From contig CAZPQK010000006.1 of the NCBI GenBank assembly GCA_964588695.1, forward strand, positions 196,239-260,238: 64,000 bases of DNA. Reading direction: 5' to 3'. Each line of letters begins with the position of its first letter. The first letter of the stretch is position 1. The notes below the pieces were generated by a model. That model saw only the letters and a program-made list of their open reading frames with translations. It made no database searches and was not told the origin of the DNA. A program made the translations under genes and the position numbers. The stretch comes from an uncultured bacterium (GTDB taxonomy: Bacteria > Krumholzibacteriota > Krumholzibacteriia > WVZY01 > JAKEHA01). Positions 17,718 to 22,447 of the stretch are shown here, piece by piece.

Positions 17718-18800
17718 ATGTATTCATTCTTAGACGGCATCTATCGACGCGTGCGCATTGCATTGTCGCCGGTAGGTGCCGCTTTTGTTTTTGGGTTGGT
17801 CCTGTTCGGCCTGGCCGCGCTTCACCTGCGCCCCGCCACGTTTACTTCTTCTCTTGGTGTCGAATACGCGGCGCTGGCCAGCAACCCGTTCGCCGCCGAT
17901 GCCCCCGGCGTTGGATATCGCATCCTCACTCCGCTGCTGAGTTACCTGCTTGGCCTTCGCGGCGATCTCATTATTGTCACCAATCTCATTCTTTGCGCGC
18001 TGTTTCTGATGCTCGTCGTCGCGTATTTCAGCCGCGGAGATCGCCCGGCCGACGGTCTCACCGCCGGGCTTGTCTTTGCGTTCTCTCTGGTCGTCGGCAC
18101 GACCATGTACTTTGGCGGGTACTGCGACATCCTTACCTACATACTCGTGTTTCTGATGTGGAAGTATCGCACCCATCGTCTGCGCTTTTATCTGCTCCTG
18201 TTTCTTGCCACCATGAACCACGAGTCGGTGCTGTTCCTGGTGCCGATGTTTGCCTGGTTGGCGCTACGCGACTTCGGCGACCGCAAGCGTTGGGCTCTGG
18301 ATCACCTACTGGGCTTGGGGTTGGTGCTGGGAGTGATGTTTGGAGTTCGCACGCTATTGAGCGACAACATTGCCGATGGGTTGGAAGCGTCGCGGTATAT
18401 GGAGCCCCTCAAGCACGACCCGTTCTTTTGGTTTCGGCAATCGTCACCCAACCAGCTGGCCGGGTTGCTATCGGTATTCAAGCTTAGCTGGTTGTTTGTG
18501 TTTGTGGCTGGGGGAATGATGTGGCATATGGGCAGGCGATTCGAGGTTGTAGCGATCGCTCTGGCGCTCTTCGCTGGTTTTGGGCAACTGTTTGTTGCCT
18601 ACGATGCGTCGCGGTTGTTCACGCTGTCGTTTCCGGCGATGTTGATTGCGCTGGAGTTTTTGTTCGCCAACGATCCGGATAAGAATCGGCAATGGATGGG
18701 GTATGTGCTGTTGCTTACGGCGATTGTTCCAACCTACTTTACCGCCGCCGAGCACATCATTCTGCTGAAGTCTGCTGTAACCCTGTGGCTCGCGGGTTAG
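17718..18800 (+). CDS. Hypothetical polytopic membrane protein
   Basis: About 10 predicted TM helices and no recognisable catalytic motif. Convergent with, and overlapping by 4 nt, the HTTM-DCC gene. Confidence 0.55.
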   Translation: MYSFLDGIYRRVRIALSPVGAAFVFGLVLFGLAALHLRPATFTSSLGVEYAALASNPFAADAPGVGYRILTPLLSYLLGLRGDLIIVTNLILCALFLMLVVAYFSRGDRPADGLTAGLVFAFSLVVGTTMYFGGYCDILTYILVFLMWKYRTHRLRFYLLLFLATMNHESVLFLVPMFAWLALRDFGDRKRWALDHLLGLGLVLGVMFGVRTLLSDNIADGLEASRYMEPLKHDPFFWFRQSSPNQLAGLLSVFKLSWLFVFVAGGMMWHMGRRFEVVAIALALFAGFGQLFVAYDASRLFTLSFPAMLIALEFLFANDPDKNRQWMGYVLLLTAIVPTYFTAAEHIILLKSAVTLWLAG

Positions 18801-20341
18801 TCGTTTGCGCCAAACGCGGTATCTTCCACAAACAGATCCAACTCTTCGGGGGAAGGCAGTCGGCAGCTGTCGCGTTTTCCGAACGTCGCGTAGCGGGTTT
18901 TAGCAACGGCGCGATAGACGACGTCACGAATCGCTTGCGGGATCAGCCACAGTAAGCCGACAAGTCGGTAGCCGCCTCCCAACGCGTGCACGATGGCCAA
19001 TACCGCAGTTGATCGCACCACCACGCTGCCGTCGCGCTCCAGAACAAAGCTGTCCACGTTCTGTTCGCGAAGACCGGTGGCGGTAAGCATCTCTTCTCCG
19101 CGGCGACTCTGCAGAGACGCATAGCGCAACCGGCGTTTCTTGTCGCGGCGAACCAAAAAGTCCACAGTTCCGTTGCACAAGTTGCAGACTCCGTCGAAGT
19201 AGGCCACACCGTAACCGGCGGGCCACGCCATCGTGCGTCGATACGCGCTGACAACGCACCAAATGGCCAACAGCACCGAAGCGGTGTGCACCAACGCAAA
19301 CCAGTACACGGGGTTGATGCCGACAAACGAAAGCAGCGCGGTCACCGGCGATAACCATGCGGCGGCACCCATCGGTAGTTGTTCGGAGGGGATGGCGTGC
19401 AGCCCCAGCCATACCACCACCAGGACCAACGCGGTTTGCCAGGATGTCGCGGCGGCCAGCACGCGACCGGGCCCGGGTTTGGCGAACCATCGGGTTACCG
19501 GTTCCCATGGGATAAACAGAAGGTAGCAGGGGAGAAAGATGGCGAAGGGAATGTTCAACATCAGCATGTTGATCCAGTGGAACACGACCGCGACGAAAAC
19601 CGCCGCGCGAAACGTAGACCGATGCACGATCGCTATCGCCGCGCCGAGTTCAAACATCACCGCCGTGACATCCATGATTTCCCACACCCAGGTGTTCTTT
19701 AAGGTCGCCATGAACCCGGCTAGCAAATCGCGACGCTCCAACAGGTAGTAGCCATTTAGCGTCCATCGGCGAACCCCCTGTGTGGTCAGGTCAAAGTCGA
19801 CCCAGGACATCAGCTTGGGATAGCCGGCGGTGAGGTAACCGAACGAAATGAACATGGCCATCATGGTTAGCGGCCAGTTGTGAGTGGCCTGGCGGGGTTT
19901 GCCAGCTCGCGCGCGACGACGAGCGTCGATAGAGTACGCCGCTCCCCAGTTGGAAAACGACATAAGCGCAGGGGTAAAGATCATCAGGCTAGTGCCGTCG
20001 GTACGGCCAAAGCAATACTGTGCGGTGTACCCGGCCATCATCAACGCGAACACGGCAAAAGACATTAGTCTCGTGCGGTAGCCGACAAGTAGTCCAATCA
20101 TCGCCACCGCCAAAGCAATGCTTATGGCGAGCAAAACCCACTGCGGAGGAAAGCCGTCGAGCAAAAATCTTCCCGGGCTCATCCACGTAGGGTTGAAATA
20201 TCCAGGCGGGTTGTTCGCGATCCAGGCGTAACTGGGAACGCCGTAGATCAAGTAGAACAGCGCAAAGGCGATCCGATAAATGCCCAGTGCCTCCGCGCTG
20301 ACCGGAAACATCCCGTGAATCCAGCGGTCGAGAGCTTTCAT
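18797..20341 (-). CDS. HTTM-domain (vitamin K gamma-carboxylase-like) membrane protein fused to a C-terminal DCC/DUF393 thiol-disulfide oxidoreductase domain
   Basis: N-terminal LGIYRIAFALFYLIY... multi-TM HTTM-like region. C-terminal YFDGVCNLCNGTVDFLVRRDKKRRLRYASLQSRRGEE is the DUF393/DCC Cys-x-x-Cys signature. Confidence 0.7.
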   Translation of the reverse strand: MKALDRWIHGMFPVSAEALGIYRIAFALFYLIYGVPSYAWIANNPPGYFNPTWMSPGRFLLDGFPPQWVLLAISIALAVAMIGLLVGYRTRLMSFAVFALMMAGYTAQYCFGRTDGTSLMIFTPALMSFSNWGAAYSIDARRRARAGKPRQATHNWPLTMMAMFISFGYLTAGYPKLMSWVDFDLTTQGVRRWTLNGYYLLERRDLLAGFMATLKNTWVWEIMDVTAVMFELGAAIAIVHRSTFRAAVFVAVVFHWINMLMLNIPFAIFLPCYLLFIPWEPVTRWFAKPGPGRVLAAATSWQTALVLVVVWLGLHAIPSEQLPMGAAAWLSPVTALLSFVGINPVYWFALVHTASVLLAIWCVVSAYRRTMAWPAGYGVAYFDGVCNLCNGTVDFLVRRDKKRRLRYASLQSRRGEEMLTATGLREQNVDSFVLERDGSVVVRSTAVLAIVHALGGGYRLVGLLWLIPQAIRDVVYRAVAKTRYATFGKRDSCRLPSPEELDLFVEDTAFGAND

Positions 20342-20868: not shown

Positions 20869-20980
20869 GACTCCTTGGCGGATGGTCACAACGGGGTTGC
20901 GGCGGCGTCGCGACGGTAGTCTAGCAAACAGCTCGCCACTGCGACCAGCGTAGTGTGCCCATGGCAAACCGTGATAGAAT

Positions 20981-22447
20981 TTGCCCATGGATCGTTTTGA
21001 AGTCAATCCAATGGAACTGGTCGACAAGTTCAAGCCCACCGAACTGGTGGGGCAGTTCGTGGTTGCCCAGTCGATACCTGTCCAGCCGCCCGGCTGGTCG
21101 ACGAAACCGTTGGGTAGTTGGCAAATCGCCCACGACCCACGCCTTCCGGTCCACGACGTGCGTGGCGGCGACGGAGCGGTCGTGGGGATTGTGGTGGGGT
21201 TCGCGATTGACGATACGCCGGCCTTGATTCAAGGGGCGGTTGAGTTGGCCACGGCCACTCCGGATGTTGAGTCGTGGGTCGCTGGTCTGGCGGGCCGGTT
21301 TCTGGTCGTAGAGCTTCGAGAAGGCGATCTGCGGTTTCATTCCGATGCGGTTGGCTCTTTGGGGACAGTTTACTGTCCATCCCAGAAGATCGTAGCATCA
21401 ACTGGATATCTTATTCCCTACACGCCCGAGACTCAGGACCGCGCGGCGCTGATCGACGAGTTGCGGGCCGCCGGGTCGCGGTTTTTGTTTCCCTTCGGCA
21501 CCACCTCGCGCGAGGGAATCTATCGACTGCTGGGTAACCATCGTCTCGATACTCACAATTGGCAACCCAGGCGGATGTGGCCGACCGGTCCGGTTGACCG
21601 TGCCGAAGACTCGCGTGAGTTACTAAGTGAGATTGGTCGCGAAGTAAGAAGGGTGGTAACCGGGGTTGCGGCCGCCTATCCGCTGTCGGTTTCGTTAACC
21701 GGTGGAAAGGACAGTCGTGCGCTGTTAGCGGTCACGAAAGACATCGCGAAAGATGTGGACTTTTATACGTTATCGGTTGGCGACCGTCAGGCCGACATCG
21801 ATGTCTTTTTGGCCAGGACCCTCGCGCAACGATATGGGTTACGGCATAACGTCATCCGCACCGCGACCGCGTCTAACGACGAACAGCTACGATGGCTTTA
21901 TCGGACCGGGTGTGTGGCATCCGAAGACCGCGGTCGGGAAATCACCAACGCCTACTACCAACTCGACCCCGCCCGCGCCGAGCTAACCGCCGACTTCGGC
22001 GAAATCATGCGTGACTTCGCGACCAAACCAGGTATGGATCCGCGGGCGGTGGAAACGATCCTTTATCCTATGAAGCTAAAGCCGATTCCGTGGGTGTTGG
22101 AAACGTTGGACCGCTACATTAAGTCGCTACCGTTGGACGATCCGTATCATATTATGGACATGAAGTATTTGGACGGCCGCATCGCGTCATGGGCGGGTGT
22201 TCTACCGTACGCCGAAGCCGACTCGGTGCCATTGCGAATGTCGGTGTTCACTTCGCGACGCCTGATACAGTTGGCCATGGCGTTGCCGTTGGACTTGCGT
22301 TTGGCAGACGGCGCTCCGGAGGAAGTGACGCGAATGCTGTGGCCGGAGCTGTTGAACCTGCCGTTTAATCGTTATACCGGCATGACCCACGTAAAGGATC
22401 GACTCAAAAAACGCGTTTATCGGATGAAGAAGGCGATGCGCCGCTAG
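20981..22447 (+). CDS. Asparagine-synthetase-like ATP-dependent amidotransferase lacking the N-terminal Cys nucleophile
   Basis: PP-loop SLTGGKDSRALL. N-terminal glutaminase-fold region (FLVVELREGDLRFHSDAVGSLGTVYC...ASTG) but no MCG start. This is the architecture of lasso cyclases, beta-lactam synthetases and TblS-type enzymes that use ATP to form amide bonds. Confidence 0.65.
   Translation: MPMDRFEVNPMELVDKFKPTELVGQFVVAQSIPVQPPGWSTKPLGSWQIAHDPRLPVHDVRGGDGAVVGIVVGFAIDDTPALIQGAVELATATPDVESWVAGLAGRFLVVELREGDLRFHSDAVGSLGTVYCPSQKIVASTGYLIPYTPETQDRAALIDELRAAGSRFLFPFGTTSREGIYRLLGNHRLDTHNWQPRRMWPTGPVDRAEDSRELLSEIGREVRRVVTGVAAAYPLSVSLTGGKDSRALLAVTKDIAKDVDFYTLSVGDRQADIDVFLARTLAQRYGLRHNVIRTATASNDEQLRWLYRTGCVASEDRGREITNAYYQLDPARAELTADFGEIMRDFATKPGMDPRAVETILYPMKLKPIPWVLETLDRYIKSLPLDDPYHIMDMKYLDGRIASWAGVLPYAEADSVPLRMSVFTSRRLIQLAMALPLDLRLADGAPEEVTRMLWPELLNLPFNRYTGMTHVKDRLKKRVYRMKKAMRR

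Follow-up and report, generated by a model that had tools for sequence, protein, structure and literature searches.

Do the genes that lie back to back on either side of a short intergenic region in this stretch of DNA act in one biosynthetic pathway, or are they two units that share nothing beyond their position? The stretch, referred to as the window throughout, comprises 64,000 nucleotides from an uncultured bacterium of the Krumholzibacteriota (assembly GCA_964588695.1, contig CAZPQK010000006.1, positions 196,239 to 260,238 of the forward strand). Its minus strand carries the gene of a membrane protein of 514 amino acids (aa) (18797..20341), in which a vitamin-K-carboxylase-like HTTM core is joined to a DCC1-like thiol-disulfide oxidoreductase domain, and directly upstream of it the gene of a small partner protein of 176 aa (20338..20868). 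Divergent from these two genes, on the plus strand, lies the gene of a Cys-less PP-loop enzyme with the fold of AsnB and of β-lactam synthetase (20981..22447). The first-pass annotation of this DNA had read the three genes together as a membrane-associated pathway for the modification of a peptide or small molecule. Our analysis favours another answer, namely that two independent units stand back to back, a self-contained partner/HTTM-DCC operon for a GGCX-like enzyme and a lone AsnB-fold enzyme, and we put the probability of this reading at roughly 55%. The HTTM part of the locus is a divergent variant of an HTTM/partner/DCC module which is known from bioinformatics and is experimentally uncharacterised.

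The separation of the two units follows from gene order in their relatives. Loci of HTTM relatives were collected from contigs with homologous proteins, from GTDB genomes (Gemmatimonadota metagenome-assembled genomes (MAGs) and a Rhodothermales MAG), from Joint Genome Institute (JGI) metagenomes and from plasmids, and hidden Markov models (HMMs) of the three window proteins were run over all open reading frames (ORFs) of 33 loci, here given as L numbers, with tblastn as an additional search. Matches to the AsnB-like HMM were confined to the loci that had been fetched via AsnB-like proteins and to L011, which is the window's own sequence as contained in another assembly. No AsnB-like gene was found within ~7 kb of the HTTM relatives in ~20 loci and, conversely, the loci of the AsnB-like relatives (L009, L010, L012 and L014) are without an HTTM gene. 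Because synteny is absent from both sides, the AsnB-like gene is, on the evidence of these loci, an unrelated neighbour rather than part of the HTTM operon, and the joint pathway of the first-pass annotation does not hold up. The HTTM system is thereby freed of a false lead. In the window the divergent genes start 112-118 bp apart, depending on which start the AsnB-like gene uses. The intergenic region between them (20869..20986) yielded no sigma-70-like match.

What, then, does the HTTM operon encode? Identification of the larger protein as an HTTM-DCC fusion, as proposed in the first-pass annotation, is borne out by Pfam, in which both domains score above the gathering cut-off. The HTTM model PF05090 matches aa 13-266 (19544..20305) with 32.0 bits against a cut-off of 27.7 (E 1.2e-7; model positions 3-242 of 259), and the DCC1-like model PF04134 matches aa 381-489 (18875..19201) with 95.9 bits against a cut-off of 27.8 (E 4.8e-27). 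The two domains are connected by a linker of ~114 aa (19202..19543). In an alignment of the window protein with nine full-length relatives of 39-44% identity, 136 positions are invariant in all 10 sequences. Among these are K176 (codon 19814-19816), W180, H255, N258 and F266 of the HTTM core as well as D383, C386 and C389 of the DCC motif D383-G-V-C386-N-L-C389, the CxxC codons of which occupy 19175-19186. A third Cys, C493 (codon 18863-18865), lies just past the Pfam DCC match in the motif S-C-R-L-P, is present in 10 of 10 sequences and could serve as a resolving cysteine. Residue 116 (codon 19994-19996) is Gly in the window protein and His in 9 of the 10 relatives. Neither the profile of the whole HTTM-DCC protein nor that of its HTTM part alone matched any PDB sequence, the chains of GGCX included.

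The partner ORF extends at most over 20338-21039, and its most plausible start is the ATG at 20868, which follows 5 nt after an AAGGAG (20871-20876) and gives the protein of 176 aa. Its TGA stop codon overlaps the ATG of the HTTM-DCC gene as ATGA (20338-20341), so that the sequence bears out the earlier view of the partner as a single-pass protein, translationally coupled upstream of the fusion. One hydrophobic helix is found at aa 15-33 (helix 12-36 in the model). According to the AlphaFold2 (AF2) model, which has a mean predicted local distance difference test score (pLDDT) of 84.5, the N-terminal transmembrane (TM) helix is followed by a poorly ordered but conserved loop and then by an α+β domain of ~140 aa. 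The loop carries the family motif (K/E)P(F/Y)PxI(L)xPxGA, and the invariant residues of the protein are all Pro or Gly (P41, P46, G48, P87 and G100); behind the TM helix the family has a near-invariant Glu, which the window protein replaces by Lys. With 22 D+E against 18 K+R the soluble part is acidic overall. The partner family comprises 41 clusters in a collection of 5.8 billion proteins, none of which (0 of 41) carries a precomputed Pfam domain. At permissive thresholds the partner matched no model of Pfam or NCBIfam, those of DUF5819 and SdpA included, its model has no significant neighbour among PDB folds, and tblastn with the partner against plasmids gave no match; the HTTM part, used as query in the same way, found the HTTM protein of Rhodococcus only.

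The conserved unit is the partner together with the HTTM protein: in every locus with upstream sequence the partner HMM matches the ORF directly upstream of the HTTM gene, and in 14 of 22 loci the stop codon of the former overlaps the start codon of the latter to give ATGA or GTGA, with TGATG at this place in several other loci. The small single-TM protein is thus an obligate companion, translationally coupled to these HTTM proteins, far outside the range of the Pfam family DUF5819. Judged from its distribution, the DCC domain is an accessory, acquired on more than one occasion either by fusion or as a gene of the operon. It is fused in the window protein and in a clade of the Gemmatimonadota type; it is absent from the HTTM proteins of ~380 aa encoded in L008, L015 and L025-L030, the flanks of which contain no separate DCC gene. 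A further arrangement is found on plasmid pDK1 of Rhodococcus sp. DK17 (L017, 79664-81494), where overlapping genes encode a DUF393 protein (119 aa), a small protein (168 aa) and an HTTM protein (328 aa) (WP_157180100/099/098). The 168-aa protein aligns with the partner profile with an hhalign probability of 71% (E 3.9e-5) and has the EPYPxIxxPG loop in common with it. This operon therefore consists of the same three components as that of the window, likewise encoded by overlapping genes, but differs in that its DCC gene is separate and comes first, in that its HTTM protein has 328 aa and in that an O-antigen ligase gene follows.

The DCC-fused clade has a mixed set of neighbours, which includes genes for TsaD-like, LeuA, Ser/Thr kinase, Big_2, metallo-β-lactamase, SDF transporter, GNAT and NUDIX proteins. 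A DCC-less pair lies directly behind a multi-module nonribosomal peptide synthetase (NRPS) gene that ends in a thioesterase (L015, 1-7152; L016, 2-4373), with overlapping stops and starts from the NRPS gene through that of the partner (189 aa) to that of the HTTM protein (383 aa) and a cytochrome c-like gene converging from downstream. Other pairs, in L025, L026, L028 and L031, stand amid genes for GT2, GT4, PMT_2, Wzt ABC transporter and sulfotransferase proteins, and a glycan-cluster setting is also seen in L002 (polysaccharide cluster) and in L017 (O-antigen ligase); a prenyltransferase-like toroid protein is encoded among the glycan-cluster genes. Nearly all pairs in glycan clusters lack DCC. 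The redox module has been recruited repeatedly, and versions without it occur in NRPS and envelope-glycan clusters.

A module of closely similar layout has been described in a preprint (10.64898/2026.08.19.745780) for Melghirimyces thermohalophilus, in which a DUF5819 protein and an HTTM-DCC1-like protein are encoded by adjacent genes (A0A1G6IAS5 / A0A1G6IBF2). The complex that AlphaFold 3 predicts for this pair can be superposed on human GGCX and on MloH; in the model DUF5819 occupies the position of the clamp domains and reaches the vitamin K pocket with two of its residues, while Lys189, Trp195 and Phe273 are conserved in the 447-aa HTTM-DCC1 protein (10.64898/2026.08.19.745780). In both pairs a small protein, made up of a TM helix at the N-terminus and of a domain of ~150 aa, is encoded next to an HTTM-DCC1-like protein, and both HTTM cores contain the conserved Lys/Trp/Phe triad. 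They differ in the length of the fusion, which is 514 aa in the window as compared to 447 aa in Melghirimyces, and in the linker between HTTM and DCC, which in the window protein amounts to ~114 aa with 2-3 extra hydrophobic segments and in Melghirimyces is shorter. A further difference is that the window copy has no His that aligns to H160 of GGCX. The partner, moreover, escapes detection by the Pfam model of DUF5819 and belongs to a family without Pfam domain; six of its homologues gave no match to the DUF5819 model even at E≤10. Because the DUF5819 model fails to recognise the partner at this threshold, we class the window locus, by its sequence, as a variant of the module of the preprint and not as a member of it.

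With human GGCX the window protein has the HTTM membrane core in common. In GGCX a large extracytoplasmic (lumenal) clamp domain forms the C-terminal part of the same chain, whereas in the window protein hydrophobic segments come after the HTTM core, and then a CxxC-containing DCC domain that GGCX does not have; nor is the window protein known to act on a substrate that bears a propeptide. By analogy, the separate partner protein may substitute for the clamp domain that GGCX carries in cis. When the family profile was aligned by hhalign with residues 37-331 of human GGCX, a sequence 100% identical to that of the PDB chains, K176, W180, H255 and N258 fell on K218, W223, H287 and N290, respectively, in an alignment of low significance (E 0.21); we regard these equivalences as leads and not as proof. 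As reported in PMC12647623 and the references given there, K218 is the catalytic base of GGCX and the exchange W223A impairs activity. The same weak alignment (E 0.21) places D115-H116 of the family on N159-H160 of GGCX, where the window protein reads D115-G116. In GGCX the Asn159/His160 pair holds the substrate carboxylate and CO2, and H160 handles the Glu carbanion and CO2 and couples epoxidation to carboxylation (PMC12647623). Because Gly116 replaces the His that aligns to H160, the window copy may not carboxylate at all and may instead be an uncoupled epoxidase or accommodate another substrate geometry.

To our knowledge, MloH is the only one among the free-standing bacterial HTTM/GGCX homologues with an assigned reaction. 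This vitamin K-dependent carboxylase (VKDC) orthologue adds a carboxyl group to an aspartyl residue during the biosynthesis of malonomycin (Law et al. 2018, cited by 10.64898/2026.08.19.745780 and PMC12647623). As a bacterial HTTM enzyme it compares with the window protein, and the DCC-less relative behind the NRPS genes of L015 and L016 is found in a similar setting. MloH differs in that its clamp-like region is fused and its gene belongs to a biosynthetic cluster, whereas the window operon stands alone and carries DCC.

On which side of the membrane would the DCC domain lie? Hydropathy and counts of K+R in the 10 relatives yield eight core helices, with loops 2, 4, 6 and 8 and the stretch after the last helix being rich in K/R and the loop with K176 on the opposite face. 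After the core follow a clear TM helix (aa 294-316), an acidic loop, an amphipathic/hydrophobic segment (aa 326-343), a second and strong TM helix (aa 345-366), a K/R-rich stretch and finally DCC. Because of the positive-inside rule and the K/R-rich stretch that immediately precedes it, the DCC domain is probably cytoplasmic, provided that segment 326-343 does not span the membrane. The stand-alone DCC protein of Rhodococcus fits such a location: with Pfam positions 1-112 matching residues 4-110 of its 119 aa it is nearly all domain and has no room for a signal peptide. The soluble domain of the partner would be periplasmic, a placement for which there are two grounds, the model of the preprint and the net negative charge of the domain.

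By analogy with GGCX, the operon most likely encodes an enzyme that depends on a quinol and O2, either a carboxylase or an epoxidase, and that brings along a thiol reductase of its own. Within this main reading we infer the formation of a complex, the quinone chemistry, the role and side of DCC and the side of the soluble part of the partner. The partner most likely docks on the multi-pass HTTM protein and contributes in trans the extracytoplasmic clamp, which in human GGCX and in Streptomyces MloH belongs to the same chain as the HTTM core; its conserved loop after the TM helix would come to lie beside the pocket of the quinone. A reduced quinol of the menaquinone type would be oxidised with O2 by the HTTM core, with the invariant Lys176 as the base, to generate a strong base able to deprotonate a C-H of the substrate for carboxylation; alternatively, the enzyme might act as an epoxidase only. 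The CxxC of DCC, possibly together with C493, would then re-reduce the quinone or its epoxide at the expense of cytoplasmic thiols and thus do a job like that of VKOR, while the substrate would be encoded elsewhere and not nearby. In its most far-reaching form this amounts to a complete miniature two-gene vitamin K cycle, with the clamp subunit and the HTTM core as the enzyme and with DCC as a new quinone or quinone-epoxide reductase unrelated to VKOR; in this complete form the scheme is tentative and rather doubtful.

Several points weigh against a GGCX-like function of the operon. The function of every member of the module is a prediction; the alignment with GGCX is statistically weak, and the profile and sequence searches of the PDB were without match; at the position that this alignment pairs with His160 the window protein has Gly116, in place of the His of 9 of its 10 relatives; and the topology assigned to DCC comes from a hand-made analysis of hydropathy and charge, with manually set segments, in 10 relatives. 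If the vitamin K cycle nonetheless proved true, it would provide the first biochemical function for the large DCC/DUF393 family, for which we know of no function in bacteria. The role of the free-standing GGCX homologues of bacteria would become clear as well; their substrates might belong to the envelope or to secondary metabolism, to judge from the relatives in glycan clusters and behind NRPS genes.

But could the same genes be part of something else? Were the AsnB-like enzyme and the partner/HTTM-DCC pair to be expressed from a common divergent promoter region for a joint purpose, such as amide or lactam formation followed by carboxylation, this would agree with their adjacent and divergent position with only 112-118 bp between them, with the precedent of MloH, an HTTM enzyme acting on an intermediate of an NRPS-polyketide synthase (PKS) system, and with the DCC-less relative found directly behind an NRPS gene. 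We consider such a pathway very unlikely, since the synteny that it presupposes is absent in every relative examined, from whichever side one looks, since no precursor, protease, NRPS or aminotransferase gene adjoins the window genes among the neighbours scanned (small precursor ORFs were not searched for), and since next after the AsnB-like gene comes tRNA-His, which has a promoter-like site and a terminator of its own. A maturation machine of the SdpA/SdpB type, by which a secreted toxin, be it a peptide or a protein, would be processed or exported with no quinone-dependent carboxylation, is quite unlikely too. Neither window protein matches the SdpA or SdpB models, presumably contained in the Pfam and NCBIfam libraries, at E≤0.1, although the gene order, a small protein followed by a multi-pass membrane protein, is the same and SdpB is, we assume, a member of the HTTM superfamily. 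SdpA and SdpB are both needed to process SdpC into the SDP toxin (PMC6818787). Downstream of the HTTM-DCC gene there is no gene for a secreted substrate resembling SdpC, the next gene being convergent and encoding a 360-aa membrane protein, and the conserved K176/W180 motif of catalytic type and the recurrent DCC partner point to redox chemistry instead.

The DCC-less relatives amid envelope glycan genes (L025, L026, L028, L031 and L002) and the O-antigen ligase gene next to the pair on Rhodococcus plasmid pDK1 would suit a role in which the pair acts on no protein or peptide but on a glycan of the cell envelope or an intermediate linked to a lipid. The DCC-fused clade to which the window protein belongs has heterogeneous neighbours, though, no glycan genes are adjacent to the HTTM operon in the window, and we know of no HTTM enzyme that acts on glycans or takes part in their synthesis, so that we hold this explanation to be unlikely for the window copy. 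Finally, the partner might not be a subunit but the substrate of the HTTM enzyme, that is, a periplasmic protein that becomes carboxylated. The strict and translationally coupled pairing and the acidic character of its soluble part (22 D+E, 18 K+R) could be taken in this sense; yet it has no conserved Glu/Asp cluster, its invariant residues are Pro and Gly, the window protein has Lys in place of the near-invariant Glu that follows the TM helix, and the model of the preprint makes the small protein of this same architecture a structural part of the enzyme. This last explanation appears extremely unlikely to us. We therefore return to the reading of two separate units, with the operon encoding a GGCX-like enzyme, which leaves the question of what the second unit is.

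The AsnB-like protein starts either with the TTG at 20981 (488 aa) or with the ATG at 20987 (486 aa), its maximal ORF beginning with MPMDRF. Its AF2 model, built on 30 relatives, has a pLDDT of 92.1, and Foldseek aligns it over the full length with β-lactam synthetase, carbapenam synthetase, TsnB9 and AsnB (1mc1, 1jgt, 1q15, 7ylz and 1ct9; E 8.8e-14 to 1e-10, ~500 columns, TM-score 0.5-0.6). The PP-loop reads S-L-T-G-G-K-D-S-R (aa 238-246; 21692-21718), and the pattern L-T-(A/G)-G-x-D-S-R is conserved across the family. The Pfam model Asn_synthase (PF00733) reaches 18 bits with a cut-off of 21, and only in the PP-loop region; QueC is likewise below threshold. The first 35 aa are free of Cys, and 30 members of the family have no conserved Cys in this part either; in them the first β-strand (conserved Q-F-x-L) is preceded by 18-45 variable residues. 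An alternative start that would supply an N-terminal Cys, which the first-pass annotation had considered, can be rejected, as 20981 is the first start after the in-frame stop. The nucleophile of an N-terminal nucleophile (Ntn) glutaminase is therefore absent and not restorable in this way, and the earlier description of the protein as an AsnB-fold enzyme with a TGGKDS PP-loop and no N-terminal Cys is confirmed.

With β-lactam synthetase, carbapenam synthetase and AsnB (1JGT, 1Q15 and 1CT9) the protein shares the two-domain fold over its full length and the PP-loop, and like β-lactam synthetase (β-LS) and CarA it is without the N-terminal Cys nucleophile; its identity with the three enzymes, by contrast, is only 12-16%, and no clavam or carbapenem genes occur among the Pfam-scanned neighbours of its gene. 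The conserved residues of the family are found in both domains, namely Q25, W39, G73, G105, D122, G173, R182, N186, H187, L189 and R198 in the N-terminal domain and T240, G242, D244, S245, R246, T263 and D274 in the synthetase domain, and this indicates that the degenerate Ntn-like domain is under selection. Motifs peculiar to the family in the former are Q25-F, W39, D122, R182xxPNHxL189 and R198. As in β-lactam synthetase, the degenerate domain probably serves to bind the substrate. The enzyme presumably uses ATP to activate a carboxylate, which it then converts to an amide.

With a threshold of E≤1e-3, an exhaustive HMMER search yielded 2376 cluster representatives of the AsnB-like family, and with one of E≤1e-30 it yielded 328; almost all of them have 470-520 aa and are matched over their full length. 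That a word-index homology search had found the protein itself alone is thus a matter of sensitivity and not a sign of orphan status. Pfam does not cover the family, only 6 of 30 relatives matching Asn_synthase at E≤0.01, and a search of the PDB sequences with it gave no match. In the loci of its relatives we found three tandem AsnB-like paralogs followed by a class I/II aminotransferase gene (L009, 8001-13911; L010, 986-6896), a double fusion of 987 aa followed by the same aminotransferase gene (L012, 4763-8912) and a relative together with a DUF547 gene (L014). The tandem paralogs and the aminotransferase suggest a small and so far undescribed amide-forming pathway elsewhere; in the window the AsnB-like gene is present in single copy and without the aminotransferase gene. 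A lasso cyclase was tried as an identification and rejected, since the NCBIfam model NF033561 scores 21.9 bits with a cut-off of 300. Neither among the scanned neighbours in the window nor in the loci of the AsnB-like relatives is there a gene for a B protease or PqqD-like protein (small precursor ORFs were not searched for), in agreement with the first-pass annotation, which had not seen a canonical lasso cluster here. A lasso, β-lactam or NRPS cluster in the window was also dismissed, as the accessory genes are absent. The AsnB-like gene thus belongs to a large family of glutaminase-less AsnB-fold enzymes outside Pfam that deserves a study of its own.

The remaining neighbours can be described briefly. 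The 360-aa multi-pass membrane protein is encoded on the plus strand at 17718-18800, and its gene converges on the HTTM-DCC gene such that the 3' ends share 4 nt; the protein matched no Pfam or NCBIfam model and was not found near the HTTM genes of relatives. On the other side, directly 3' of the AsnB-like gene, the tRNA-His gene (GTG; 22529-22604, plus strand) is preceded by a near-consensus promoter-like site (TTGACA-17-TAGTAT, 22475-22503) and followed by a terminator-like hairpin with a T run (22611-22632). Beyond it, on the minus strand (22643-25755), the gene of an AstE/aspartoacylase-like protein (395 aa) abuts that of a 641-aa protein, the sole Pfam match of which is a C-terminal CBS pair; base 23830 belongs both to the start codon of the former gene and to the stop codon of the latter. 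Divergent from this pair is a gene for an oligopeptide transporter of the OPT family (25939-27663). At the far end, on the plus strand, 63748-64000 holds the 5' two-thirds of a transfer-messenger RNA (tmRNA) gene (Rfam RF00023, 90.9 bits), which is cut by the end of the window.

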